Below the pieces are notes generated by a model. The model searched no databases and was not told the DNA's origin. It worked only from the letters and a program-made list of their open reading frames with translations. A DNA stretch of 62,242 nt from a virus (Duplodnaviria; Caudoviricetes): the IMG/VR virus record IMGVR_UViG_3300009183_000009, positions 1-62,242 of that record. One strand, 5' to 3'. Of the stretch, positions 21,441-61,560 are shown piece after piece. Position numbers and translations under genes: made by a program. Numbering within the stretch: position 1 is the stretch's first letter; each line of letters starts with the position of its first letter.

Positions 21441-24400
21441 ATGCCGCAGTACAAAGTTGAGATTCCGGGTCAAGGCACATTTAATGTTGACTCCCCGGAA
21501 GAGCTAACCGATGCAGAGGTTTATGCAGCGGTTCGACAACAACTGCGCTCTGAAAAGCCTCAAGAACCCGAAGCACAGCCTGAGTCGGGTTTTTTTCCTG
21601 CACTTAAATCAAGCGCCTCCGCACTTAAGAGCGACATAGCCTCCCTTGCAGGCAGGTCAGGGTTGATGGATTTGGCCAAAGCCGAGCAAATCCGCAAAGA
21701 GTCAGAAGAGTACCAGCGGCAAACTTTTGCCCCTACCCAAGAAGGCTGGACAGAAGCACCCTTTACCAAGTTTAAAGAGTTGGCTGGCGGTTCTTTGCCG
21801 TACATGGCCGCGCCTATAGCGGCGGGTATGTTGGCTCCTGAGGGGGCTATTGGTCTTGGTGTAGCAGGTCTGACTTCTGCCACACAGTTTGCAGGTTCAG
21901 GTTTGTCGCGTCAAATGGACGAAGGCAAGTCTCTTGCTGAAACAAATCTTGGTGCCGCCGTTGCCGCGTCCGTACCACAGGCCGCGCTAGACATATTGTC
22001 TTTACGCATGATTCCCGGTATCCGTGGCATCTTTGGTGCTGTTGGTAAGGAGATGACCGAGGTTGAAGCGCAGGCAATTGCCAAGCAGGGATTGGCTAAA
22101 ACCTTAGGTGATTACGCACTTACAACAGGTAAAACTGCCGGTATGGAGGGTCTGACCGAGGCAGGTCAACAAGTATTTGAGCGTTTGCAAGCAGGGTTAA
22201 ACCTTACTGACCAGCAAGCGCAGGATGAGTATTTTCAGAATTTCCTTGGTGGTGCAGTCCTTGGTGGTGCATTGGCTCCTATTGGACGGTATTCTGAACG
22301 CGGCAAAGAACAACGGCAAGCAAAAGCGTTACTTCAACAACCTGAAGCAGTTGCTCCCCCTGAACCAAGTGCGCCTGTTGCTCCAACCACTGCCGAAGAA
22401 GCAATTCCTGAACCTACTTTACGGCAACCTGTTTCTGAGAAAGCTGCCAAAGAACCAGTGCTCCCCGGAGCCGCCGCATCGTTTAAAGAACGCTTGGAAC
22501 AGCGCAAACAGCTTGAAAAGGCTGTTGCCCCCTATGAAAAAGAGCAGGCCCGTGTAGCCGCCTTGACCCCATTTGACTACTTGATGGAGCAGACAAGTGA
22601 GGTTCCCAAACCCACTAAAGTTAAGGAAGGTGAGGGACTTGTTGCCGCCGACATGACCGGCCTGCCTTACGCCATGAAGTTTGCCAAGCAGCAGATTGAA
22701 GCTGCCAAGTACAACGAGATTGAGCCAGACGTTTCCAAATACATTGAGTATCTGCTTACAAAACCTGACTATGCCAATATCTTGGCTACGCACGCTAAGC
22801 AATTGCCGGGGTTGAACGCCAAACAAAGCAAGTCCGTGTTGGCCGCTTTGCCATCCGCGCTGAAGTTACGGGCCGAGGCAGAAGCTAAGAAAACCGCAGA
22901 AGCAGAGAAACCTGCCGAGACTCCTGATAAAGATTTAAGCCACCTTGAGCCCTTGTTTAATAAGGCTTTTGAGGGTAAAGAACCCATCATTGAGGTTAAT
23001 GAAAACCTCATGCCTACCCGCAACGCCAAAATTGTGCGGGAGAATGTCAATACTTTACTGCAACAAGCTGATGATGTAGAAGCAACATACAGGGCTGCGC
23101 GGCGTGCTGGTAATAGGGCGGCGGCTGTCTCTGCTTTTGCGCAAAAACAAGCCATTACCAAGAAGCTCAATGCACTGACTGAGGAGACCCCTGCCGGTGC
23201 GTTGACTGAGGGAAAGCAGAAACCTCCGGGAGAAATTGATACCCGCGCTTCTTACGCTAGAGAAGTTATACAGCTACGCCGCCAACAGCAAAAGGCGCTG
23301 GAGGACATTGAGATTACGCTTAATACGCTCCGTGCTGGCGATGTGATGGGTAGAGAAGTTGAACCCGTCCGTGACCCTGATACTGGCAAGATCACCATGA
23401 AACCGGTTGAGATTGGCAAAGGTGCGGCAGGTGCATCCGGCGCTGTGCTGGCGCAACGTGCTGAGTCTTTGCGTGGGGACTACATCAACGCCTTGCTGAA
23501 GGAAGCGGCAACACATCGCCGTGCGCTGGGCAAAGCCCCCATAACCGTGGACGAAGCCACCAAAGCCGCCTCACGGGTGTATGACGTTGTAAATGAGTGG
23601 ATTGAGCGCTCCAAAGCCAAGCCGTTGCCAAGGTCTGTCGAGAAGCCTGAGTTTGTAGAAAAGATTGTTCAGCCCGCCCAGAAACGTGCAGGCAAGATCA
23701 TCCGAGGTGCAGTTACTGAACGTGCGTACAGCGATAAGCCGCCAGCCAAAGCTCCTGAGGGATATGACGAAACTGACGGCAAGTGGGAGAAGTTTCCCAC
23801 AGGCAAGCCAAACCCACCTTTTGTTTGGGAATTCATAGACAGCCGCCCAGTAGAGGGCCGGTTTAACGAAATTGCAAGGCTAAGCGACAAGGAAGTTAAG
23901 CACTTCAAGGCTCAGATCGACAATGTAGTCAAGGACTTAGAAGAGATTCCGTCTGAAGTTTCACGTGAAACACCTCTGTTGAAGCAACAGTTTGCTGGCG
24001 CTGAAGCCAAAAAGACAGCCGAAGCCCGAGGTGAAACCGCCGCCACAGCCAGCGGAGAACTGCGTCGCCTACGTGAATACGTGGGCAACATGATTGATAA
24101 AGCGCTGACACGTAACCCACCGGAAGAAATACAGAACTCGTTAGAACGCGCCAAAGAAATCATTGAAGACGGCAAAGCCAGCAAGACTTTGTTGGACGCA
24201 GCCCAGAATCAAGCCGCACGCATCCTGCGCGGTGAAGACCTTGGCAAACAGGTGTACACACGTCGTGAACTTGCTTCGAGCAAACGTGTTGTTGACAATG
24301 TTCCCGGCAGAGAAGCTGAGACACGCATTGGAGAACGTCGCACATACAGACAGGTAGGTTACGAAGCCGCGCTTGCCCCCGAAGGTAGCGCATTACGTGA

Positions 24401-27400
24401 GCTTCAAGATGCCATAAAGCTGTATGAACGTACAGCCCAAGAGGGTGAGATTGCTGGTGAAGGTGCGGCTGGTCAAGGTCAGTTGTTTCCTGAGACACGC
24501 AAAGACATTGGCTACATCCGCGCTAATCCTGCCAACTTTGCCAAGTCACCACAGATTAAACCTGTATGGGAAACGTTGGAGCAGTCCCGCAAGCTCAAGG
24601 CAGAGTTAGATCAGAAGACCAAAATAGATAGAGCCAGAGCCGTTGTAGCCGTCAAGGAAGTTGAAAGCCTTACAGCACTGGTTGACAACATTAAAGCAAA
24701 CACCAAGTTCTTTTGGGCAGACACTACTAAATGGTCAGACCAAGCGTTGGCTAAAGCGTTTGTTCCGTATCCTGATATTGGTAATACAGCCGCAGAACAA
24801 GCGCTTGTTGACATTTACCTTAAAAGCCCTAAGAGCCTTTCCGCACAAGATAAGGTAACCGTTGACGCGCTTATAAAAACTTTTACCGCAAAAGCGTTGC
24901 CTAAATATCAAGAAAAACTAAAACAAGCAGTAAGTATGCTTGCCCAAGGTGAACGGCTTAACGACTTTAACAACAAGTTGCTTGGCTTTATGCAAGACTC
25001 TAACAAGAGTGTTCGTGAAGCGGCAGAAGCTAAGAAGCAAGCGCTTGCCCCTTTGCAAGAAGCATTGGATAGGATTAAGGTTGCGCTCAAAGCGTCGCCT
25101 GTTCTGACAGAAGCTCAGAAAGAGGCAATTGGTTTAGAAGGCAAGATCAGCGACCAACGTGCCAAGTACAGCCAATCTGTTGAAGCAGCTATTAAGAAGA
25201 CCAACGACCAAATGGTCGTGGCAAGAGATGCCATTCTCAACCCACAAATTGAGCCAGTGTTGCGTTCACTCAAAGCCGCAGGTACGCGCCTTGAGAAAGT
25301 GTTGGATGAAATCACTAACGCAGAAGAAGCGTTTGATGCAATGCTAGAGACCGAGGGCGGCGAAGAGCGTCTATTGAGTTCTCCGTACCAAGTTGAAAGC
25401 TTGCGCAAGAATAAAGAAACTGCTGAGAAACTTATTGACCAGATTCAAGAGCAGTCAAAGATATACGAAGACTTGCTCAAGCAAAAGAACGAGGACTTTA
25501 CACGTAGCTCAATAGCTGTGCAAGCGATGCTGGACAAGAACGTCAAGTACGAGCGTGAGTATTTGGAAATACTAGAAGGCCAGCTTGCGTTTGTGCGCGG
25601 TGAAAACATTGACGCAATGCAGGAGAAACCCGGCGAGCGCCGGATGTTTGAAAAAGTAACGGCTACGCAGAAGTATCCGTTTGCTGCTCGCCGCGCTGAA
25701 GAAGCAATTAAAGTTCAACGTGCTGCGCTGGAAGCTGCAAAGAAACGCGCTGACGCGTTTAAGAAAGAAACTGACGATACCAAAGACAAGATTGAGAAGA
25801 CTCAGAAACAAGCAGCTACAGATATTGCAGAGAAGTTGCCCGGCATTCAGATGTCGAAAGGCGAGGTCAGCAAACTTAAAACTGCGGCTGAGAAAGAAGC
25901 TGAGGCAAAGAACAAGGCCGAGCTTGACCTTACCGCTGAGACCATTGATGCTGGCAGACGCGCTCAAATAAAGCAGACCAAGCTGGACGAGTTGAACACC
26001 GAGCTTGAGAATTTGTACCTTGACTTTGCTGGGCGTGCTGGCCCAACAGACCCTGCGCTGTTGCAAGAGTTTGCGCGTAACAAGAAGAAGTCACCCGCTA
26101 CGCGTGCGTATGCACAAGCTAAGCTTGACCTATACAACCAGATTGAAATCCTTGAAGCGCAAGAAGATTCACTTAAAACAGGTAAGCCTTTTAAAAAGCC
26201 CCGCACAGCTACTACGCCGAGCACTGCCGCGTTGGCGGGAGCTAAAGAGTTCCGTTCAGGTTCTGATGCTCAGATAGAGCAACGCCAGAAACGCATTGAT
26301 GCGGCAATTGACAAAGAGTACGCACGCTATGAACGGCTTGAAGCAAAAGCCACGATGCAGGCAGACAAAGAAGCACGTAAGTATGCTGAGAATTTGTTTG
26401 AGAGCGACGACTACATTGAGCCGTCTAGACAGAGCTACGAGTTCTCACGCGGTGTCCCATCGACAGGCTTGACCAAAGCTGAGCTTGAGGCTGAGCTTAC
26501 TGCGGGTATGGGTGAGCCTGTTACTGGTCGAGGTAGAGAAGCGCAGGTTAAGCGTGCATTGAGTGTGTATGAGAATCTTGACGAGTACTTAAGCCAGTTT
26601 AAAGATGCGACACGTCAAAAACTAGAAAGCCAGATTCCATCAGACGCCAAAGGTTTTGTGCAGGACGGTAAGGCTGTATTGTTTGCCAACAACATAGCCA
26701 AGGGCGAAGGTTTAGGCGTATTGCTCCACGAAGTCGGCGTGCATATAGGCTTTCGCAATTTCTTTAACCAAGCTCAGTACAACGCGTTGGTTAAGACAGT
26801 CAAATCATGGGCTGCGCGTGAAGACGGCTCTATGGAAGCGCGTGTTGGTAAAGCCGCAATGGACAGAGTTAAAGCCGCTGAGACTCCTGCAAATCAAATT
26901 GATGACGAGCTTTTAGCGTATGCCGTTGAAGAAGCGATGAAAGCCGGGGTAGACCCAGAAGGCGTGAAGAAAGGTTCTGCTGTGCAGAACTGGTTGCGCA
27001 TGGTGGTCGACGCGTTTAGAAAAGCGCTTGAGAAGTTTGGCATTAACGCCAAGAACTTGACTGCTGGTGACTTGGTTAACTTTGCTTACGGTGCGGCACA
27101 GCTTGAACTTAAAGGAACTTGGCACGGCACTGGCGTGGAGTTTAAAGAGTTTGACCACGCTTATATGAGTTCTGGTGAAGGACACCAAGCATTTGGCTAT
27201 GGCACATATCGTGCACAGCAAAAAGGTATTGGCCAAAACTATCAACGTATTGCGGCAGAAAACCAAACTGAGAAATGGGCGGAACGTCCTGATGTAAAAG
27301 AATGGTTTGAATCACAGAAACCAAAATTTACAGGCACGTTGCCTGAAGGAACGCCTGATTGGTTTTTAGAAAGTGCGTTAGACACAACAGCAGGTGTTAC

Positions 27401-30400
27401 TAAAGGGGTCAACCCCTACCAAGCTTTTAAATTTGCTCTTGAAGATAACATAGAAGAATTGGAAAACTTGCCCTCTGTTGATGAAGCAGGTTTTAAAAAT
27501 GTCACAAATGCTGAGTTTAAAAATAAAATAAAAGAACTTAAAGACCTTGCAAAAAATGCGGGTAGTTATTTAACGGCTGTCTACGATGAGCCTGTATATA
27601 AAGGCAGACCACACTATGATTTGTTTGGAGACAATCCAGCCGCACATGCCGTTTTAAAGTTTTTTAGAACCGCCCTTGCAACGGGGAAAGAACCATCTTG
27701 GGAAAACGCTTTTGCAGAAGCAAAAGCGGATGCTGAACACACCATAAAAGTGTTTGAGCAAACTGACCTTGAAAAAGAAGGCAATGCTTTTTATAAACGT
27801 TTTAAACAAATATACGAAGACTTAGATACGCTTGATGTAAAAGACTTTAAATACAACCCACCGTCTGGCGCGCCTGTGCCAGAACCTGTTGGCTATTTGT
27901 TGCGCACGCTCCATACCCGCCCAGAAAACGAATACGTTCATTGGGACGACCTTGCAGACAAACAACCACCGGTTGTAAAAACTGTTTTTAAACGTATTTA
28001 CGATTCGTTTACACCGCCGCAAAAAGAATTTTTTGACCGTGCCATAAGCACGACTCCGCTTGATCGCCAAAATGGACAGGATTTGTACCAAGCATTGAGT
28101 GCTGTGTTTGAGAAATCCGGCACACCAAGCAAATTGTCTGACATGATGGCGTCTGAAATGCTTCACGCCGAAGGTGTTGCAGGCATTAAGTTCTTTGATA
28201 ACCCATCAAGAAAAACAAAACAAGGCACGTTTAACTACGTTGACTTTAGCGACAAGGGGGAAGGCGCTCAAATACTTGGTGTTGACCTTGAGCCTGTGGG
28301 GCAGACCAAAGAGATGCTGTTCTCCCGCGCTGTTGCTCCGGGGTTTGAGGATGCGTTGAACACAGCCAACGACATTATTGCTAAGCCCAAAACAGTTCGT
28401 CAGCGGGTTGAAGCTAACCTTGGTCTGGCATTCCGTACACAGGTGCTGGACAGACTGGCTCCGCTGGAACAAATTGCCAATACTATGCTTGACCCACTCA
28501 AGGGCACGCAGATGATGTACTACCTGCGCATGTCAGACCAGCGCATGTCTTTTGTTCAGCAAGCTGTTGGTCGTGGTGTTCCACAACTTGTTGGCTACAA
28601 GCGCAAAGACGGACAGACTGAGTACCTGATTGAAAGCAAAGAAGGTGTCAACCTGTCGTCTGTGGTCGACACCTTGAAGGACGCACCCGGCATGAATGCT
28701 GAAGCGGCCAATAAGTTGTTTACGCTGTACTTGGCTGGCAAACGTGCTGAACGTGTTGGCTACAACAAGCTGAACTTCTCCAAGACAGAATCTGAGATAC
28801 GCAGTGCCGTTACTCAAATCGAAGGTAACAAAGAACTGTTGGGCGTGTTTGAAAAAGCACGCACTCAATACAACAACTACAACCGCAACCTGATGAAGTT
28901 CATGGAGTCTACGGGCGCTATGTCTAAGGAAGTTGCTGAACAGCTTGCCAGCACCAACGACTACATTCCCTACTACCGTGAGCGCAACGGCAACGCCGAA
29001 CTGGTCATTGGCGGCGAAGGCACGTTTAAGATGGGTAGTCTTAAAGATCAACCACAACTGAAAGAGTTGATTGGTGGTGAAGAAAAGATCATGGACTTCC
29101 TGACAAGCTCAGTGGAGAACACGTCCATCATTATGGATATTGGTTTGCGCAACAAGGCTACTACCAACGCCATGTTTGAGTTGGTTGATCTGGGTATTGC
29201 CCGATTCGTTAAGCCTGACTCAACTGGCCCCAACATTGTGCGCTTTAAAGATCGCGGTGAAGAGAAGGCGGTTGAGATCAACACACGCAATACCGACTTC
29301 CCTGCCGACTTACTGGTCAAAGGGCTTGAGGGTATTCCTGTAAACAACTCTGCGCTTGTCAGAGCTATGGGAGTTCCATCTAACTTTTTACGTAAAGCTA
29401 TTACCCTGAACCCGTTGTACTCTATGCGGCAGATATTCCGTGACTCTGTTGCGGCTCCTCTGATGTCCGGCGCAGACATGTTGCCCATTATTGGTGCTCT
29501 CAAACAAATTGGTGCGTCGGCAACAAAAGAAAAGCTGGAGGCTCGCGGCATTGTTGGTGGGCAAGTATTCACTGGCACAAACGAAGACCTTACCACTATC
29601 CTTAGAGAGTTCCAGTCAGGCAAGATGGGGTTGTCTCAGTTGATGGCACGCGCCGAAGGCATTGCAATGGAGGCTGACGCAACTACTCGCCGTGCTCAGT
29701 ACGACTCTTACATCAAGCAAGGACTGTCCGAGATGGAAGCTACGCTGATGTCGCTGGAGTCAATGAACTTCAACCGCAAAGGCTTGTCGCCCAGCGTGCG
29801 CATGGCGTCTACGCTGATACCTTTCTTCAATGCCCAGTTGCAGAGCTTGGACGTTTTATACCGCGCTATGACAGGCAAGATGCCGTTTAATGAGCGCCTA
29901 GACATTCAAGGAAAGCTGTACCGCCGTGGCATGTTGCTGGCTGGCACAGCCGTGGCCTACGCCATGCTCATGCAGGACGACGAAGCCTACAAGAACGCCA
30001 ACCCTGATGAGAAGTACGGCAACTTCTTTGTGCGCATCCCCGGATTGAAAGAACCTATTCGTGTACCAGTTCCGTTTGAAATTGGCTATATCTTTAAGGC
30101 TCTGCCCGAAGCTATGGTCAACATCATGGCAAACAAACATGGCGACGAGGAAGCCTACAAAGCATTCAAACAGATTGCGCTTCAGACCATACCGGGCGGC
30201 ACATCTTTGTTCCTGCCAGCCGCTGTGAAACCTATGATTGAGAACGCCGCCAACTACTCGTTCTTTACTGGGCGCTCACTTGAGACTAAGCGAGAGCAGA
30301 ATCTTGAGGCGGCTTACCGCTACCGAGACAACACTTCTGAGATTGCCAAGATCATTGGTCAGGCGGGCAATGTGTCACCTATCAAAATAGAGAACCTGAT

Positions 30401-30875
30401 ACGCGGCTACACCGGCTCTATGGGTATGGCGCTGGCTCAGAGTTTTAACGTGGCAATGCCAACGCCCAAGGGCACACCAGAGCAAGCTACCAAGCGTTTG
30501 TCCGACACTCCTGTGATCGGCCCTTTGTTCCAGCCCAACGATGCTGGCGGCATTGTGGGCGCTGTCTATGACCGCATGACTGAGGTGAAAGAAGTCAAGC
30601 ACACGTTCGACGAGTTGGTAAAAGAAGGCCGTAGGGCAGAGGCCAAGGAGTATCTCCAGACGCATCTCAACGACTACGCCGCGTCAGCAGTGGGCGGCAA
30701 CGCTCAACAGCAGATGACGCTGATTACTCAAGCAATGAATGCGGTCAAAGCGTCCAATCTTCCTCCAGATCAGAAGCGAGCAAAGCTGGACGAGTTGCAG
30801 GCTTTGCGTATAAAGATCGCCACGAACATCCGGGAAGTCTTCGATAGAACCACACTCCAAGCATCCCGTCCTTGA
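21441..30875 (+). CDS. Large polyvalent virion protein (metallopeptidase-like, ART-like and LPD38-like domains)
   Basis: 3144 aa; LLHEVGVH at 26721; WHGT...GEG.QAFGYG.Y at 27120; RVPVPFEIG (LPD38-like) at about 30060. Confidence 0.8.
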   Translation: MPQYKVEIPGQGTFNVDSPEELTDAEVYAAVRQQLRSEKPQEPEAQPESGFFPALKSSASALKSDIASLAGRSGLMDLAKAEQIRKESEEYQRQTFAPTQEGWTEAPFTKFKELAGGSLPYMAAPIAAGMLAPEGAIGLGVAGLTSATQFAGSGLSRQMDEGKSLAETNLGAAVAASVPQAALDILSLRMIPGIRGIFGAVGKEMTEVEAQAIAKQGLAKTLGDYALTTGKTAGMEGLTEAGQQVFERLQAGLNLTDQQAQDEYFQNFLGGAVLGGALAPIGRYSERGKEQRQAKALLQQPEAVAPPEPSAPVAPTTAEEAIPEPTLRQPVSEKAAKEPVLPGAAASFKERLEQRKQLEKAVAPYEKEQARVAALTPFDYLMEQTSEVPKPTKVKEGEGLVAADMTGLPYAMKFAKQQIEAAKYNEIEPDVSKYIEYLLTKPDYANILATHAKQLPGLNAKQSKSVLAALPSALKLRAEAEAKKTAEAEKPAETPDKDLSHLEPLFNKAFEGKEPIIEVNENLMPTRNAKIVRENVNTLLQQADDVEATYRAARRAGNRAAAVSAFAQKQAITKKLNALTEETPAGALTEGKQKPPGEIDTRASYAREVIQLRRQQQKALEDIEITLNTLRAGDVMGREVEPVRDPDTGKITMKPVEIGKGAAGASGAVLAQRAESLRGDYINALLKEAATHRRALGKAPITVDEATKAASRVYDVVNEWIERSKAKPLPRSVEKPEFVEKIVQPAQKRAGKIIRGAVTERAYSDKPPAKAPEGYDETDGKWEKFPTGKPNPPFVWEFIDSRPVEGRFNEIARLSDKEVKHFKAQIDNVVKDLEEIPSEVSRETPLLKQQFAGAEAKKTAEARGETAATASGELRRLREYVGNMIDKALTRNPPEEIQNSLERAKEIIEDGKASKTLLDAAQNQAARILRGEDLGKQVYTRRELASSKRVVDNVPGREAETRIGERRTYRQVGYEAALAPEGSALRELQDAIKLYERTAQEGEIAGEGAAGQGQLFPETRKDIGYIRANPANFAKSPQIKPVWETLEQSRKLKAELDQKTKIDRARAVVAVKEVESLTALVDNIKANTKFFWADTTKWSDQALAKAFVPYPDIGNTAAEQALVDIYLKSPKSLSAQDKVTVDALIKTFTAKALPKYQEKLKQAVSMLAQGERLNDFNNKLLGFMQDSNKSVREAAEAKKQALAPLQEALDRIKVALKASPVLTEAQKEAIGLEGKISDQRAKYSQSVEAAIKKTNDQMVVARDAILNPQIEPVLRSLKAAGTRLEKVLDEITNAEEAFDAMLETEGGEERLLSSPYQVESLRKNKETAEKLIDQIQEQSKIYEDLLKQKNEDFTRSSIAVQAMLDKNVKYEREYLEILEGQLAFVRGENIDAMQEKPGERRMFEKVTATQKYPFAARRAEEAIKVQRAALEAAKKRADAFKKETDDTKDKIEKTQKQAATDIAEKLPGIQMSKGEVSKLKTAAEKEAEAKNKAELDLTAETIDAGRRAQIKQTKLDELNTELENLYLDFAGRAGPTDPALLQEFARNKKKSPATRAYAQAKLDLYNQIEILEAQEDSLKTGKPFKKPRTATTPSTAALAGAKEFRSGSDAQIEQRQKRIDAAIDKEYARYERLEAKATMQADKEARKYAENLFESDDYIEPSRQSYEFSRGVPSTGLTKAELEAELTAGMGEPVTGRGREAQVKRALSVYENLDEYLSQFKDATRQKLESQIPSDAKGFVQDGKAVLFANNIAKGEGLGVLLHEVGVHIGFRNFFNQAQYNALVKTVKSWAAREDGSMEARVGKAAMDRVKAAETPANQIDDELLAYAVEEAMKAGVDPEGVKKGSAVQNWLRMVVDAFRKALEKFGINAKNLTAGDLVNFAYGAAQLELKGTWHGTGVEFKEFDHAYMSSGEGHQAFGYGTYRAQQKGIGQNYQRIAAENQTEKWAERPDVKEWFESQKPKFTGTLPEGTPDWFLESALDTTAGVTKGVNPYQAFKFALEDNIEELENLPSVDEAGFKNVTNAEFKNKIKELKDLAKNAGSYLTAVYDEPVYKGRPHYDLFGDNPAAHAVLKFFRTALATGKEPSWENAFAEAKADAEHTIKVFEQTDLEKEGNAFYKRFKQIYEDLDTLDVKDFKYNPPSGAPVPEPVGYLLRTLHTRPENEYVHWDDLADKQPPVVKTVFKRIYDSFTPPQKEFFDRAISTTPLDRQNGQDLYQALSAVFEKSGTPSKLSDMMASEMLHAEGVAGIKFFDNPSRKTKQGTFNYVDFSDKGEGAQILGVDLEPVGQTKEMLFSRAVAPGFEDALNTANDIIAKPKTVRQRVEANLGLAFRTQVLDRLAPLEQIANTMLDPLKGTQMMYYLRMSDQRMSFVQQAVGRGVPQLVGYKRKDGQTEYLIESKEGVNLSSVVDTLKDAPGMNAEAANKLFTLYLAGKRAERVGYNKLNFSKTESEIRSAVTQIEGNKELLGVFEKARTQYNNYNRNLMKFMESTGAMSKEVAEQLASTNDYIPYYRERNGNAELVIGGEGTFKMGSLKDQPQLKELIGGEEKIMDFLTSSVENTSIIMDIGLRNKATTNAMFELVDLGIARFVKPDSTGPNIVRFKDRGEEKAVEINTRNTDFPADLLVKGLEGIPVNNSALVRAMGVPSNFLRKAITLNPLYSMRQIFRDSVAAPLMSGADMLPIIGALKQIGASATKEKLEARGIVGGQVFTGTNEDLTTILREFQSGKMGLSQLMARAEGIAMEADATTRRAQYDSYIKQGLSEMEATLMSLESMNFNRKGLSPSVRMASTLIPFFNAQLQSLDVLYRAMTGKMPFNERLDIQGKLYRRGMLLAGTAVAYAMLMQDDEAYKNANPDEKYGNFFVRIPGLKEPIRVPVPFEIGYIFKALPEAMVNIMANKHGDEEAYKAFKQIALQTIPGGTSLFLPAAVKPMIENAANYSFFTGRSLETKREQNLEAAYRYRDNTSEIAKIIGQAGNVSPIKIENLIRGYTGSMGMALAQSFNVAMPTPKGTPEQATKRLSDTPVIGPLFQPNDAGGIVGAVYDRMTEVKEVKHTFDELVKEGRRAEAKEYLQTHLNDYAASAVGGNAQQQMTLITQAMNAVKASNLPPDQKRAKLDELQALRIKIATNIREVFDRTTLQASRP

Positions 30876-33901: not shown

Positions 33902-33915
33902 ATCTGTCCTTTGGG

Positions 33916-34137
33916 TTATTTATAGTCGTCTGTCGCGTGGTCTATGCCTTGCTTAAAGCCATCCTCAAAACCTTCGTGAAAAGCTTTCTCTTTGCTGTCA
34001 ATAAGCTCAGCCGTGCGCTCCACAAGCACCTCAATCCAATCAGGGGTAACTTTGTCGAAACCCATGATGTAGATATAGCGCAGAAGTTCGTTGTTACTCA
34101 GTTGTCGAGGCTGAATGCTTTGCATGTTTTTCTCCAA
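33916..34137 (-). CDS. Hypothetical protein
   Basis: Fills the gap in the operon; true start may be the internal MQSIQPR. Confidence 0.65.
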   Translation of the reverse strand: MEKNMQSIQPRQLSNNELLRYIYIMGFDKVTPDWIEVLVERTAELIDSKEKAFHEGFEDGFKQGIDHATDDYK

Positions 34138-39287: not shown

Positions 39288-41255
39288 TTATGATTTTGCT
39301 AGTCCATATCTACGGTGCGCACCACCGTCAGCGGCCAAGGGTATCCCCGGCATGTAACTCGGCTCCATAGTCATCTGCGCCAAGACCCAAGTCTTCGCGT
39401 CAACAACTTCTGCGTCAGGCACCAACACGATCTGTTCATCGTGCACAGTACCAACCACAGGGTATCTCTTTGTCACCCTCAACATTCCATCGGTCATGAC
39501 AATGCGTGCCAATGCCTGCGTAACATTGTTTGTTATTTTTCCTGCATACAACTTCGTTGCACGCTCTCCGTACACCCACTGCGTTTTGCCTTTATCGTCT
39601 AACTCAGGGCGCAGATTTGGGTACAGAAGTTTCATTCCGTTTGGTAATTCTATCTCGCCTTTGCGGAATGTCAAACACTTGTGCGTGTACTCTTTGCCCA
39701 AATACAGCGACTTGTATATAAGCTCACTGAACAACGCCCACAACGCCACGATAGGCCAAGCAGTCCGGCGGTATGAGTCAATGATTGCCTTGGCGGCAAG
39801 GGCATGAGTCAAGAGTTCCTTGTCAGAACAAGTGTGGGGGATGTCAAACAGCTTGTCGTCGTTGCCGTCCCACTCCACAAACTTCTGCGCGTACTCAGAA
39901 CTCACCCCCAGTGCTTTGGCAAAGTCTTTGGAGTACCTGACTGGCGGTGCGCCAAGGAAGCCAGTTAGAAGTTGCGACGCAAAGGATGCCCAACCGAGGC
40001 CATACCCACAACCGAGTAGGGCACTCTTCGCAGATTGTCTAAGATCTGGATGGGAATCTTTGGTGAGGTTTGGTATGTTGAACATCTGAGCCCCGAACGC
40101 CGCATAAGGGTCACCGCCTGCCCTGAAGATGTCAAGCATATCTTGGTAGTCACCAAGCCACGCGAGTACTCGCGGTTCAATTTGCGATAAATCCCCAACG
40201 ACAAGTTGATAGCCTTCGGGAGCCATAATTGCTTTGCGTAGGAAACTACCTCGCTTGAGGTTTTGCATGTTGATTGCACTGCCCTTTGCCGCCGTCCACC
40301 TGCCCGAGAGAGCACCGTAATACGATAAAGGTACAGGTAACTTGCCGCGCTGGGATATATCGAGGAAGCGCTGGGCTCTGGTTCGTTCGGTCGTAGACTT
40401 AACCCGAAGGCGTGCTTCGCAAAGGAGGGCAACGTCCTCACGTTCACCATTGAGCAACGCTTGGAAGAGGGCGTCGTTCTTTGCCAGCGCGAGCGTTTGC
40501 TTGCCGGTAGTTTTACTAATTTTTGTGGGGGCAACAACCCCGAGGCTTTTAAGTATGTCAGCAAACTTCGGGTTCGACGCAAGTTCAGTTTCTTGTATGC
40601 CGAGCTTTTGTAATAGACCTTCACGTGTTTCTCCTTCTTCTGTTAGTGCCTTGATAAGCATCTTGTGGTCAAGCTCAAGCGTTGGTCGTGTGTACATCTT
40701 GAGCGTCATGTCGATAAGCCTTAGCTCACTCTTGGGGTATCCTTTGACCAAGCGATCAAAGATTCGTTCGCATAGATATACGTCGTGTTTGCAATAGTCT
40801 GCAAGTTCAGATTCCACGAGCGCGTCCAGCTCGGCCATACCATCGGTACTATGCACGGCTGTCCCTTTTGGGGGAAGATTAAAATCTCCCGCAAGTTTGG
40901 CGAGACTGTTGCCAACTTCCACGCCGCGTAAAGCTCTCGCCATTGACAGGGTGTCGAAGATAAAGGCTGGTCTAGCGTTATATATCCACTCCATAATGGA
41001 TACATCGAACTGTGCGTTGTGCGCAAGCACTGCGGTTCGTCCCCAGTCGATTCCAAAAAAGAATTCAGGTAGGTCTGATCCTCTAACCCATCTAATGTCG
41101 TCTGCGCTTCCGTACTCATGGACACAAGCGCCGAAAGATATGAACCTTTTATCACGTATGTACTCCTCAGTTGTCATCTTTGATAACGTGTAGTCACGCT
41201 TGTCCCACCGAGTTTCAAAGTCGATGGTCAGTATCCTGTCAAATGGTTTAGTCAA
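39288..41255 (-). CDS. polA: Family A DNA polymerase with 3'-5' exonuclease (Leu762 type)
   Basis: IDFET, AHNAQFD, YC..D exonuclease motifs; DLSQIE.R (A), R..AK...LG..YG (B), TVHDE (C). Confidence 0.95.
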   Translation of the reverse strand: MTKPFDRILTIDFETRWDKRDYTLSKMTTEEYIRDKRFISFGACVHEYGSADDIRWVRGSDLPEFFFGIDWGRTAVLAHNAQFDVSIMEWIYNARPAFIFDTLSMARALRGVEVGNSLAKLAGDFNLPPKGTAVHSTDGMAELDALVESELADYCKHDVYLCERIFDRLVKGYPKSELRLIDMTLKMYTRPTLELDHKMLIKALTEEGETREGLLQKLGIQETELASNPKFADILKSLGVVAPTKISKTTGKQTLALAKNDALFQALLNGEREDVALLCEARLRVKSTTERTRAQRFLDISQRGKLPVPLSYYGALSGRWTAAKGSAINMQNLKRGSFLRKAIMAPEGYQLVVGDLSQIEPRVLAWLGDYQDMLDIFRAGGDPYAAFGAQMFNIPNLTKDSHPDLRQSAKSALLGCGYGLGWASFASQLLTGFLGAPPVRYSKDFAKALGVSSEYAQKFVEWDGNDDKLFDIPHTCSDKELLTHALAAKAIIDSYRRTAWPIVALWALFSELIYKSLYLGKEYTHKCLTFRKGEIELPNGMKLLYPNLRPELDDKGKTQWVYGERATKLYAGKITNNVTQALARIVMTDGMLRVTKRYPVVGTVHDEQIVLVPDAEVVDAKTWVLAQMTMEPSYMPGIPLAADGGAHRRYGLAKS

Positions 41256-41518
41256 TTAAATGCCTCCTTTGGCGGTGCGCCAGCCATATTTAGATAGCCG
41301 AAAAAATCATTTGCCTCGAGCAAAAGCTCCGCAGCTTCCATATCATCAGCGTTCATGGTGATGAGTCCTGCCATCTCCCCCTTCGACTTGATGAGCAGTA
41401 CCGCTTGGTCTGGGTCATCGCCGTAGCACCTGACCAGTTGCAGTACGACCATCTTGAAGTGCTCACGCTCTTCCTCAGTCATTACTGTGAGTCGTTGTTC
41501 GATTGCGTCTTGTTCCAT
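41252..41518 (-). CDS. Hypothetical protein
   Basis: GAGGAG RBS; overlaps the polA start. Confidence 0.7.
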   Translation of the reverse strand: MEQDAIEQRLTVMTEEEREHFKMVVLQLVRCYGDDPDQAVLLIKSKGEMAGLITMNADDMEAAELLLEANDFFGYLNMAGAPPKEAFN

Positions 41519-41796
41519 AGTAGCTCCTCTAGTTCGTTGATGTTGTCTTCGTTGATGACCATTGACACCCCCCCTGACCTGCGTATGCGGTACAGGTTGT
41601 CCTCTTGTAAAGTTGTTGGTTTATTCTTTCCTGCCTTTGCTTCAATGCCAACAAATCTGCCGTTGACGCAGACCAAGAAGTCAGGCACGCCTGAGTTTCC
41701 ATAACCTGTGCCAATAGGCATAGCGTAGTACACGCCTGATGCTTCCAACAGTTTGCGTATCTGCTTCTTTACTTTTACTTCGGGTGTCGATGCCAT
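41482..41796 (-). CDS. VRR-NUC domain nuclease / Holliday junction resolvase-like
   Basis: PE..VK..I, GVPD, IEAK....PT.LQ. Confidence 0.88.
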   Translation of the reverse strand: MASTPEVKVKKQIRKLLEASGVYYAMPIGTGYGNSGVPDFLVCVNGRFVGIEAKAGKNKPTTLQEDNLYRIRRSGGVSMVINEDNINELEELLWNKTQSNNDSQ

Positions 41797-41809
41797 ACAG
41801 TTTCCTTTG

Positions 41810-41970
41810 AATTGGTGAGGGGGTCAAGTAGATTACACGCCCCCTCGGTCGTGTTGTGGAGTGAATGCAGAAGCTCACTTTCCAAAGGGCTAACACCCCC
41901 GCATCCAACAAAACGTGTTCGCATCTACTAGGCTTGCACGCGGTGTTCAATTAAATTGTTAGCCCTTTTG
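41810..41970 (-). ncRNA. Candidate structured RNA with kissing-loop / pseudoknot pairings
   Basis: Complementary pairs at 41884-41895/41957-41968 (12 bp), 41817-41823/41840-41846 (7 bp) and loop-loop 41827-41833/41923-41929 (7 bp) in an intergenic gap. Confidence 0.6.
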
Positions 41971-42111
41971 TTTTTTGTCTCTGATGTCTTGTAGCATTTT
42001 TCTCAGCCATGTTCCTCCTCCTAGTTTTATGTACTCCTCATACTCACTCTGTGTTACACGTATGCCAATGGCTTTGCCACTCTTGGTTAACTCACTCTTT
42101 GGTCTCGGCAT
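41959..42111 (-). CDS. 50-aa ribbon-helix-helix-like DNA-binding protein (absent from ORF track)
   Basis: Translated by hand: MPRPKSELTKSGKAIGIRVTQSEYEEYIKLGGGTWLRKMLQDIRDKKQKG. Confidence 0.7.
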   Translation of the reverse strand: MPRPKSELTKSGKAIGIRVTQSEYEEYIKLGGGTWLRKMLQDIRDKKQKG

Positions 42112-42298
42112 CTTTTCTCATCCTTACTATTGAATCTTGAAAACGATATTCACAACTGTGTTGGTCGCCAGCTTGTTTAGTTAAGAACACCAATCTACAC
42201 TCTGTGCAATACCACGCCGTCCCTTGTGCAACGACAGTCGTCTTGTCTTGATGTATCCCTTTGGTTCTCCCAAAGAATGTGCGTATCTTCTCAATCAT
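42092..42298 (-). CDS. Small Zn-finger protein (C..C...H.C)
   Basis: WYCTECRLVF......HSC. Confidence 0.65.
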   Translation of the reverse strand: MIEKIRTFFGRTKGIHQDKTTVVAQGTAWYCTECRLVFLTKQAGDQHSCEYRFQDSIVRMRKDAETKE

Positions 42299-42510
42299 GC
42301 GTCATCCTCTGCGTGTTGCGCCAATCGCCTCTCCAGCCTTTGAATACGCTCTTCGTTGTAGTGCATAGCAGCATTGGCATACTCAGCGGCAGTCTCAGCT
42401 TCCAACTTACGCAAGTGCGCCTGTCGTAGCTCTACTTTAATCACTTCGGAGATAGTCCTTGCTCTGAGAATATCCTTGATGTATTTGATTGTGATTTCTC
42501 GGAAGTTCAT
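42295..42510 (-). CDS. Hypothetical helical protein
   Basis: AGGAG RBS; ATGA overlaps at both ends. Confidence 0.7.
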   Translation of the reverse strand: MNFREITIKYIKDILRARTISEVIKVELRQAHLRKLEAETAAEYANAAMHYNEERIQRLERRLAQHAEDDA

Positions 42511-42782
42511 GTGTTCTTCTCCTTAAGCTTTTCTTCAATAGCAACGGCGAAAAGACCCCACATTTGGATTTTTCTGTCCTTTTCGGCATAGATTTCGCCA
42601 AGCACTTCAATCTCTTCAACCGTCAAACCTACCCATTTGCGCTTGCCCCTCCACTCATCCCACTGCTTCATTTTTTCATCGTTCAATAGCTGTGCAAATC
42701 GGTATATCTCAGGGGTCATTTCTTTTATGCCAGCTTCAGCACCAAGCCTGTCCAGCTTTGCAATCAATCGCTCAGTCATCAT
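42507..42782 (-). CDS. Hypothetical protein (WVGLT.EEI...FA.AIE.KLKEKN tail)
   Basis: GGAGG RBS; C-terminal motif frequent in small phage genes. Confidence 0.7.
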   Translation of the reverse strand: MMTERLIAKLDRLGAEAGIKEMTPEIYRFAQLLNDEKMKQWDEWRGKRKWVGLTVEEIEVLGEIYAEKDRKIQMWGLFAVAIEEKLKEKNT

Positions 42783-42903
42783 CGCCTCCGTTCTGCGTTG
42801 TGTAAATCATCCAACCAATCATCGCGCATACAAAGACAAACATAATAGCGCCTAGTGCCAACATCGTTGCCATTACAAGAATGCTCGTAATCATTTCTAC
42901 CAT
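42772..42903 (-). CDS. 43-aa single-TM membrane protein (absent from ORF track)
   Basis: MVEMITSILVMATMLALGAIMFVFVCAMIGWMIYTTQNGGDDD; GGAGG RBS; fills the gap exactly. Confidence 0.65.
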   Translation of the reverse strand: MVEMITSILVMATMLALGAIMFVFVCAMIGWMIYTTQNGGDDD

Positions 42904-42904
42904 G

Positions 42905-43402
42905 TCAACCTCCGAAGATTTTCTTCAGCGCATCGTACATGGCACGAGCTTGCATGATGCTCATGGTGTTGAGTACCGCATCAACATCCCACACCAGTCT
43001 TTGCGTAGGCTGAGCACTGAGGGCGGCGATGCCCTCACCGCGTGTAGCTTTGGCTTTCTGTATAACTTGCGTGGCTTTGATTTGCTTGCGTACTTTTATG
43101 GGTGAGTACTCGTTGGCTATCGTCGTGTAGTTGCTGTTCGCATCCCTCATGCACAAACCATTCTTAACAAACTGCGTGAGTAGTGAGCCAATAGATGACG
43201 GCTTGTATCCCTGCTTCTCCAACGCCGCGCAGATGGTCTTGCACGACTGGTGTGGGTTGTTCTTCACGAAGTCGAATGTTGCTCGTGTTACGTTGTTGCT
43301 AACTTTAAAATGTGGCACGTGTTTCATTTTTTTCTCCTGTTGTTGACTATCTAGCTCCCATTCGCTGAGTATTCCAGTCAGCGCAGTTTTTATATCAGGC
43401 AT
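42905..43402 (-). CDS. Winged-helix-like DNA-binding protein
   Basis: F.FVK.NP...I...L...G....SIGSLL.Q..K.G pattern; GAGG RBS. Confidence 0.6.
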   Translation of the reverse strand: MPDIKTALTGILSEWELDSQQQEKKMKHVPHFKVSNNVTRATFDFVKNNPHQSCKTICAALEKQGYKPSSIGSLLTQFVKNGLCMRDANSNYTTIANEYSPIKVRKQIKATQVIQKAKATRGEGIAALSAQPTQRLVWDVDAVLNTMSIMQARAMYDALKKIFGG

Positions 43403-61436: not shown

Positions 61437-61443
61437 TAAGTTA

Positions 61444-61470
61444 AGGGGGCCTTGTGCCCCCTTTTCTTTT
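61444..61470 (+). terminator. Intrinsic terminator after the capsid gene, overlapping a possible promoter
   Basis: GGGGGC/GCCCCC stem plus TTTTCTTTT; TTGTGC(61452)-17-TATATT(61475). Confidence 0.8.
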
Positions 61471-61489
61471 GGTGTATATTGAACACATT

Positions 61490-61560
61490 CCGAGAATCAT
61501 CGGCGTATCAAACAGGCTCGGCTGACCTCATGCAGATTGATACGCTATAACGCATGGAGA
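61490..61560 (+). ncRNA. Double-pseudoknot RNA downstream of the gpT-like capsid gene (probably the Mu-gpT-DE motif)
   Basis: Interleaved helices 61490-94/61517-21, 61503-11/61537-45 and 61529-33/61552-56; location fits the described motif, identity not searched. Confidence 0.6.

Follow-up and report, generated by a model that had tools for sequence, protein, structure and literature searches.

The window analysed here is the whole of IMG/VR record IMGVR_UViG_3300009183_000009, a complete viral record of 62,242 bp with direct terminal repeats. Its leftward gene arm contains a non-coding gap of 162 nucleotides (nt), flanked by genes that all lie on the minus strand, and this gap holds a structured RNA in which two H-type pseudoknots are bridged by a loop-loop helix. 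Comparison with relatives makes the existence and the architecture of this RNA near certain. The covariance model built for it finds a single significant copy in the 62-kb genome; a second match, at 61438-61550 (10.4 bits, E 0.76), was not significant. The RNA is mid-operon, with about 7.5 kb of an 18-kb leftward arm ahead of it and about 11 kb of genes after it; the arm is one block running from about 49.3 kb to 31 kb and includes genes for an AAA ATPase, a DUF2201 VWA/metallopeptidase and a primase/helicase. The gene directly downstream encodes a 104-residue nuclease and is the first of a polymerase/exonuclease/helicase block; genes for a PD-(D/E)XK nuclease and a SNF2-type helicase are also found downstream on the minus strand. 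The nuclease matches PHROG 93 'endonuclease' and has no Pfam match at E <= 0.01, and one of its relatives scores above the cut-off for Hjc and slightly under that for VRR_NUC, so that the name VRR-NUC given to it in the initial annotation is approximate. The RNA fits closely between its neighbors, as that annotation described: the stop codon TAA of the upstream open reading frame (ORF) lies within the 5' arm of helix P1, and helix P4 stops 10 nt ahead of the AAGGA ribosome-binding site (RBS) of the nuclease gene (Table 1).

Table 1. Features of the RNA and of the adjoining genes, in window coordinates. RNA positions are numbered along the minus strand, position n being window position 41976 - n.
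Feature	Window position	Strand	RNA position	Remarks
Whole structured RNA	41812-41972	-		covariance-model (R1) match, 146.1 bits, E 3e-43
Upstream 50-aa ORF (MPRPK... family)	41959-42111	-		final codons and stop inside P1
P1 5' arm	41957-41968	-	8-19	12 bp; contains TAA 41959-41961
P1 3' arm	41884-41895	-	81-92	
P2 5' arm	41937-41947	-	29-39	9 pairs, 2x2 internal mismatch
P2 3' arm	41907-41917	-	59-69	
P2 loop	41918-41936	-		19 nt; near-invariant GCC-N-N-GUAGAUG
Loop-loop helix 5' strand	41923-41929	-	47-53	AGUAGAU, in P2 loop
Loop-loop helix 3' strand	41827-41833	-	143-149	AUCUACU, in P4 loop
P3 pseudoknot 5' arm	41896-41906	-	70-80	11 bp; in P1 loop, abuts P1 3' arm
P3 pseudoknot 3' arm	41863-41873	-	103-113	
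Linker J3/5	41855-41862	-		pyrimidine tract CUCC 41858-41861, resembles anti-Shine-Dalgarno word
P5 pseudoknot 5' arm	41850-41854	-	122-126	5 bp with 41835-41839
P5 pseudoknot 3' arm	41835-41839	-	137-141	first 5 nt of P4 loop
P4 5' arm	41840-41846	-	130-136	GAGGGGG; 7-bp GC hairpin
P4 3' arm	41817-41823	-	153-159	CCCCCUC
AAGGA ribosome-binding site of nuclease gene	41803-41807	-		
ATG start codon of nuclease gene	41794-41796	-		
Hjc/VRR-NUC-like nuclease gene, 104 aa, downstream	41482-41796	-		PHROG 93 match
88-aa ORF, next after nuclease gene	41252-41518	-		
Family-A DNA polymerase gene	39288-41255	-		

The first pseudoknot, PK1, consists of P1 and P3 and carries the hairpin P2 in its first loop; P3 abuts P1, and the two can stack as a rod of about 23 bp. 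The second, PK2, consists of P5 and P4 with zero nucleotides between them, which gives a 12-bp stack. Both have the strand order and the loop lengths of classical H-type pseudoknots, and the 7-bp loop-loop helix links the P2 hairpin loop, which lies in loop 1 of PK1, with loop 3 of PK2. Much of this had been seen from the letters of the window alone: the 12-bp helix P1, the 7-bp GC hairpin P4, an inner hairpin (41913-41917/41937-41941) that forms the upper part of P2, and the complementary loop words AGUAGAU and AUCUACU were all placed correctly in the initial annotation and are conserved. Three other helices proposed there, a middle hairpin (41860-41864/41875-41879), a long-range pairing (41852-41856/41906-41910) and a helix thought to compete with P1 (41892-41897/41942-41947), are not conserved; jointly they are 49.1% paired in 33 sequences, against a shuffled mean of 47.9% and 31-46% when the partners are slid. 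The pseudoknot helices P3 and P5 were absent from that description, and both are supported by compensatory changes. RNAalifold suggests two possible extra pairs inside the P2 loop (41933/41921 and 41932/41922), one of them G-C, changed to A-U or G-U in some sequences, and the other a C-G that does not vary. With both formed, the 7-nt word of the loop-loop helix would be displayed in a 9-nt loop, above an internal loop of CAA/GAA.

Two alignments of relatives were used to test these helices, with slid controls in which the pairing partners were displaced by 1-3 columns. The first comprised 33 sequences aligned with MAFFT, no structure being used, and the second 100 distinct sequences aligned to a model containing only P1, P2 and P4. 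In the first, 84.5% of cells pair, compared with 42.5-50.8% in the slid controls, and 27 of 51 pairs have changed on both sides, a number matched by none of 500 shuffles. In the second, 85.5% of cells pair compared with 41.6-46.0%, 849 double-change cells stand against a shuffled mean of 290, and both-sided changes occur at 37 of 48 pairs. The conservation and covariation check called for in the initial annotation therefore came out strongly in favor of the fold. Among the 100 sequences, the seven core pairs of P1 are 92% paired and all seven have changed on both sides; P2 is 81-86% paired, with both-sided change at all nine of its pairs, and P4 is 99.8% paired. P5, though unmodelled, is 98% paired in this alignment with three of five pairs changed on both sides, and it is 100% paired in the 33 sequences, where one pair is A-U in 19 and C-G in 13. 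P3 is 78.8% paired in the MAFFT alignment, with 9 of 11 pairs changed on both sides, and just 61% paired in the larger one, in which its unmodelled arms are misaligned in divergent members.

The loop-loop helix, likewise unmodelled, is 99.7% paired. Six of its seven pairs are the same in all 100 sequences, and the seventh, whose variation was first noticed in loci L073 and L024, is A-U in 51, U-A in 34, G-C in 10 and G-U in 3, and is unpaired in 2. In all, about 40 nucleotides are invariant or near-invariant, and they are concentrated in the pseudoknots, the junctions and this tertiary helix of scarcely varying sequence. Thermodynamic prediction is a weaker guide. The minus-strand fold (-55.6 kcal/mol, z = -2.38) is equalled by 5 of 200 shuffles and the weaker plus-strand fold (z = -1.47) by 17 of 200; folding energy alone is a modest signal, and the decisive evidence comes from the relatives. 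RNAalifold, applied to the MAFFT alignment, recovers only P4 and the top four pairs of P2, since P1 is misaligned there and P3 and P5 are pseudoknots.

The covariation in 33 and 100 sequences excludes a chance fold. A DNA-level element, such as an origin, a structure of single-stranded DNA or a protein-binding site, would be at home next to replication genes, and in one low-GC clade of relatives the element abuts the -35 box of a promoter. Many of the compensatory changes create G-U pairs, however, which on the other strand would be A-C mismatches, and two pseudoknots joined by a loop-loop helix are an RNA-type architecture. The same frequent G-U pairs in the minus orientation identify the gene-sense strand as the folded one, in keeping with the strand originally favored. 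Inspection for a replication origin showed a GC skew that tracks the direction of transcription without a turn at 41.9 kb, and the phage encodes its own primase/helicase. A DNA-level or chance origin of the pattern is thus extremely improbable.

The element is neither a coding sequence nor a match to a known RNA family. Stop codons occur in all three sense frames in 82 of the 100 members, element lengths show no multiple-of-three pattern, and the two ORFs that could be drawn through the region in the window (49 aa, 41775-41924; 89 aa, 41681-41950) are not conserved. A scan of the whole window against Rfam 15 at gathering thresholds gave no match, which bears out the earlier statement that no known family fits; a permissive scan of 41600-42200 returned only DapZ, at chance level (16.7 bits against a threshold of 56, E 3.1), and in 20 diverse homologous loci searched at E <= 5 no match fell inside the element, the lone match lying outside it. 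The models of the known self-cleaving ribozymes (hammerhead, twister, twister-sister, pistol, hatchet, HDV-like and glmS) gave no match at E <= 10 in the window region or at E <= 5 in the 20 loci. ARAGORN found no tRNA or tmRNA gene in the window, and a tRNA-like end was rejected, the tail after P4 being ACC in 52 and ACCA in 16 of 100 members.

A published account of the RNA was not found, although an unnamed partial model may exist in the catalogue of Fremin, Bhatt and Kyrpides (2023; PMC10690425). That catalogue, drawn like the present family from IMG/VR intergenic regions, lists 8,495 unnamed candidate RNAs of 29-151 nt, some of them 'consistently positioned upstream of genes'; its longest model, at 151 nt, is exceeded by the RNA described here, which has about 160 nt and two pseudoknots. 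Neither 'polymerase' nor 'nuclease' occurs in its main text, and the loop words are absent from its smaller supplementary files. Recent preprints on the discovery of non-coding elements, as far as their searchable portions extend, contain nothing relevant to the RNA. Subject to such a partial model in PMC10690425, we rate the element as a new RNA class.

The family was collected by several routes. An IMG/VR search with the nuclease protein gave 322 relatives, of which the best 80 were fetched; by blastn a homologous stretch of the gap is present in 61 of these 80 loci, and the covariance model adds two more, L073 and L024. The RNA is absent from the remaining 17 (in one of them, L053, the locus contains no DNA upstream), and in several RNA-less loci the same two flanking genes abut directly. 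In L068-L080, for example, the same gene pair occurs without the RNA, the stop TAG being followed directly by GGAG (L068:1241-1506), and the RNA is therefore a module that has been gained or lost. A strict motif pattern matched 85 IMG/VR stretches and a loose one at least 119; the 80 loci fetched from the loose scan all match the model, at 28-162 bits. These searches gave 101 distinct core sequences with a G+C content of 0.36-0.63, and the element measures 145-178 nt in the 100 aligned members. A second protein search, from the low-GC branch, yielded 80 loci, 31 of them with the RNA. One candidate, L358 (13.6 bits), was rejected by eye. Its core is more conserved than the neighboring proteins, with 96% identity over 53 nt compared with 76-80% for the nuclease.

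Outside viral contigs the RNA is rare. Among 185,579 bacterial and archaeal species, represented by one genome each, the loose pattern matched 30 times; both the model score and inspection by eye mark 29 of these as chance, and the sole genuine match comes from a metagenome-assembled genome of Rhodoferax, on a 6.5-kb contig. No cultured phage with the RNA was found when the region 41000-43000 and the element were compared by blastn with 50,697 phage records, which gave no match or 24-nt chance hits at E 6, and tblastn with the polymerase returned nothing beyond 33% identity. The family occurs widely among uncultured phage contigs, most of them from fresh water, and hardly at all in cellular genomes.

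Gene context was tabulated for the 100 aligned members, with 89 upstream and 99 downstream ORFs called. In 50 of the 100 the stop of the upstream ORF falls on the fifth or sixth base of the 5' arm of P1, and in most of the remainder the ORF ends within 11 nt ahead of P1; six members have no upstream ORF of 40 codons. UAA, UGA and UAG all serve as the stop in P1, each accompanied by the matching change in the 3' arm. An upstream ORF that ends at P1 leaves no room for a promoter belonging to the RNA itself, and sigma-70-like or terminator-like sites flanking the RNA were not seen in the window. The upstream genes vary, with DUF3310 in 30, a small winged helix-turn-helix (wHTH) protein in 16 and the MPRPK family in 14 of the 89, plus others; an MPRPK-family ORF stands downstream of the RNA in one locus. 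Downstream, 62 of 99 ORFs encode the Hjc/VRR-NUC-like nuclease, and the others include coiled-coil proteins of 138-175 aa, a PD-(D/E)XK nuclease, the polymerase and DUF2201. Whatever the downstream gene, its start codon lies 14-27 nt past P4 in 66 of the 100 members, and a few further members were miscalled short through TTG codons in the spacer. The earlier claim that the RNA leads the nuclease and polymerase genes is accordingly right for the window and for the majority of downstream ORFs, and fails for about a tenth of the family, where a promoter follows the RNA, and for the members placed before different genes.

For transcription, RNA libraries of four studies supply contigs over portions of the region. 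Those of two studies extend from the upstream ORF across the whole RNA into the nuclease gene (X15, 41400-42031; X17, 41659-42109), bridging the RNA to both neighbors and fitting co-transcription, although such contigs may include DNA. Contigs X16 and X18 stop inside the element (at 41942 and 41861), which proves nothing.

These data lead us to propose, tentatively and as somewhat less than probable, that the RNA serves as a leader acting in cis to gate the following cistron, usually the nuclease. The fold would act on its own transcript. The PK2 stack ends 9-12 nt ahead of the Shine-Dalgarno (SD) sequence, a distance approximating the length that would be needed to run back along the 12-bp stack to the anti-SD-like tract in J3/5; the CUCC tract could thereby come within reach of the SD sequence, and an intact fold would block or restrain initiation. 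On reaching the end of the upstream ORF, a ribosome would have to unwind P1, because the stop codon lies inside that helix, and this would loosen PK1 and the loop-loop clamp, offering a route by which downstream initiation may be coupled with upstream translation. Alternatively or in addition, the gate may be reset by a conserved partner at the invariant loop-loop core, whether a small ligand, the ribosome, RNA polymerase or a protein of the phage; among proteins, no candidate accompanies the RNA in every member. The position of the upstream stop at P1, the start codon 14-27 nt after P4, the CUCC tract and the spanning contigs all support action in cis. The pseudoknot stands just upstream of the RBS in the window, which is not so in the promoter-followed clade. 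J3/5 contains a CUCC/UUCC-type word in 76 of the 92 members with no promoter downstream, and in none of the 8 with one, and J3/5 pairs with the ribosome-binding region at -4.8 kcal/mol, compared with -3.5 kcal/mol for its own shuffles.

Several observations weigh against a cis-acting gate. The contrast between 76 of 92 and none of 8 rests on one or two clades, and the pairing of J3/5 with the RBS shows no preference for its cognate partner (mean -4.78 kcal/mol for cognate and -5.00 kcal/mol for permuted combinations). No conserved, mutually exclusive alternative helix was found in the 33 sequences. Relatives with the same gene pair lack the RNA, which must therefore be dispensable. Some members carry the RNA elsewhere in the arm (L214, L191, L216, L180 and L123), between the AAA ATPase and DUF2201 genes, after DUF2201, or before the polymerase or a 293-aa PD-(D/E)XK nuclease, and several of these have the start codon at a distance of 35-61 nt. 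Tight packing of genes is normal for phages, so that packing alone does not show coupling, and RNA-library contigs cannot show transcript ends, strand or level.

The low-GC clade also counts against the gate. Eight of the 100 members have, after the RNA, TTGACA-17-TGnTAnnAT with an extended -10 box, and an ATG about 7 nt further on; the same arrangement occurs in all 31 RNA-bearing loci of the 80 examined in that clade. The promoter is seen in L192, L194-L196, L200, L230, L249, L256 and L316-L347, for example at L194:1611-1686. From its sequence this promoter would yield a leaderless nuclease mRNA, and since it lies after the RNA, the RNA is not the leader of the main transcript there; the clade has neither an SD sequence to hide nor a CUCC-type tract. 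It is this clade, the movable position and the want of cognate covariation that hold our estimate for the cis-acting gate down. The -10 region of the low-GC promoter falls within a short palindrome, and the leaderless arrangement hints at hosts heavy in leaderless translation.

The same facts bear on a second possibility, that the RNA is a stable molecule acting in trans, excised from the polycistronic transcript or forming its 3' end, and serving as a decoy, sponge or regulator. Its partner would be universally conserved (the ribosome, RNA polymerase, an RNase or a defence protein), and the locus would be merely a site of insertion. Such an RNA would account for a position that is not fixed, with differing genes on either side, for the placement upstream of a promoter in the low-GC clade, for patchy presence between the same two genes and for a core more conserved than the surrounding proteins; that the loop-loop core is invariant over phages of 36-63% G+C would indicate a partner common to very different hosts. 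Yet the RNA has no promoter or terminator of its own that could be found, the RNA-library contigs bridge it to both neighbors, the ARAGORN result and an ACC tail in only about half of the members give no tRNA-like end, and no partner was identified. We regard action in trans as unlikely.

A folded RNA lying mid-operon, with its exact position free to move, also recalls processive antitermination of the HK022 put or Bacillus EAR type, in which the RNA would bind the polymerase that made it and act through the following 11 kb or so. RNA polymerase, being universally conserved, would be a fitting partner for an invariant core, and EAR is likewise intergenic, pseudoknotted and placed inside an operon. 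Against this, Rfam gave no match, terminator-like sites downstream of the RNA are at chance level (12 found, 11.1 expected), and the strong promoter after the RNA in the low-GC clade would make antitermination redundant there. Antitermination is thus a slim prospect.

It is somewhat unlikely that the element is the first of a new phage-specific class of RNA, either a riboswitch or aptamer or a self-cleaving ribozyme, with the loop-loop core as its active part and the timing of replication genes as its function. A ribozyme or processing element would cut the operon transcript ahead of the replication block, and the cut would set mRNA ends and stability. About 40 near-invariant nucleotides in pseudoknots, junctions and a tertiary helix form a pattern known from the twister, pistol, hatchet and glmS ribozymes; an intergenic place in phage operons is typical of many orphan ribozymes, and cleavage would be compatible with both the leadered and the promoter-followed arrangements and with a movable position. 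On the other side stand the failure of every Rfam ribozyme model to match even at E <= 5-10, contigs X15 and X17, which span the element uncut (though contigs cannot exclude cleavage), and a size of about 160 nt, large for a small self-cleaver, in which no cleavage site can be inferred. Taken by itself, self-cleavage is quite unlikely.

A riboswitch for a metabolite or second messenger would use the loop-loop/PK2 core as its aptamer pocket, and a nucleotide-related signal would time the replication genes. The elaborate covarying fold with invariant unpaired nucleotides is of the expected kind, it lies 5' of a coherent gene set (the nuclease in 62 of 99, and otherwise the polymerase or an exonuclease in some), its core is invariant across host G+C content as expected for a small-molecule ligand, and the anti-SD-like tract could act as an expression platform. 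These points are offset by the finding of no conserved alternative pairing and no terminator, by the leaderless clade, which has no platform, and by a gene content that suggests no ligand. Riboswitches are usually also cellular, whereas this family is confined to one phage group, with the single genuine cellular match noted above. A riboswitch is, on balance, very doubtful.

Pseudoknots 5' of an RBS in polycistronic messages are familiar from T4 gene 32, the E. coli alpha operon, regulated by S4, and rpsO, regulated by S15; gene 32 is itself a replication gene, and the alpha-operon leader uses two pseudoknots. The RNA described here resembles these operators in having a pseudoknot just 5' of the RBS, in the window and, with the start codon at 14-27 nt, in 66 of 100 members. 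It differs from them in showing no sequence or model similarity, in being larger and carrying a loop-loop bridge, in possessing a core that is invariant across phages with very different proteins, and in standing away from an RBS in about a tenth of its members. With the SAM-II, preQ1-II/III and c-di-GMP-II riboswitches and the cobalamin kissing loop it shares compact pseudoknots, a 5' position and a tertiary loop-loop keystone, but it matches nothing in Rfam, lacks a conserved switching helix and a terminator, and in the present survey is phage-restricted. HK022 putL/putR and Bacillus EAR are likewise folded RNAs within long operons; unlike them, the RNA gives no model match, has a different architecture and comes with no evidence of downstream terminators. 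It is as pseudoknot-rich, as conserved in its junctions and as intergenic in phage operons as twister, pistol, hatchet, twister-sister, HDV-like and glmS ribozymes, but matches none of their Rfam models, and its order of helices differs from the nested double pseudoknot of HDV. By analogy, it may work most like the pseudoknotted translational leaders or the pseudoknot riboswitches, while belonging to neither.

Two H-type pseudoknots bridged by a loop-loop helix at the entry to DNA-replication genes are an unusual arrangement. Complex covarying folds with dozens of invariant nucleotides have repeatedly proved to be riboswitches, ribozymes or RNAs that bind core machinery. A regulatory role would mean that phages time replication genes by means of RNA, whereas catalysis or ligand binding would make the element a new natural class of RNA. 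Either way it is a compact and well-defined target for structure determination.

The loop-loop core word (GUAGAU/AUCUAC, preceded by AA; 41923-41929 and 41827-41834) is also what we take to be the stem word of the 5' handle of Cas12a guide RNA, strings of which appear in 134 papers. Full mimicry of the Cas12a CRISPR RNA (crRNA) handle was rejected, the likeness extending no further than the 6-bp stem word and the two A residues beside it; in the RNA the two strands of the loop-loop helix are about 90 nt apart, in separate loops and in reverse order relative to the handle. The likeness is probably a coincidence. A bolder possibility is that the core is invariant since it binds a universal host machine or defence component; the shared word makes a decoy role conceivable, with only a very slight probability.

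A few features of the genome lie apart from the RNA. The gap had been described as lying in an otherwise packed arm, which is not strictly true: two further non-coding gaps, of 122 nt (42783-42904) and 196 nt (33902-34097), occur in the same minus-strand arm. The nuclease ORF overlaps the 88-aa ORF that follows it by 37 nt (41482-41518), in different frames. On the plus strand, positions 21441-30875 form one ORF of 3,144 aa, for which matches are limited to PHROGs of unknown function; its product is a giant protein of the kind found in some podophage groups.

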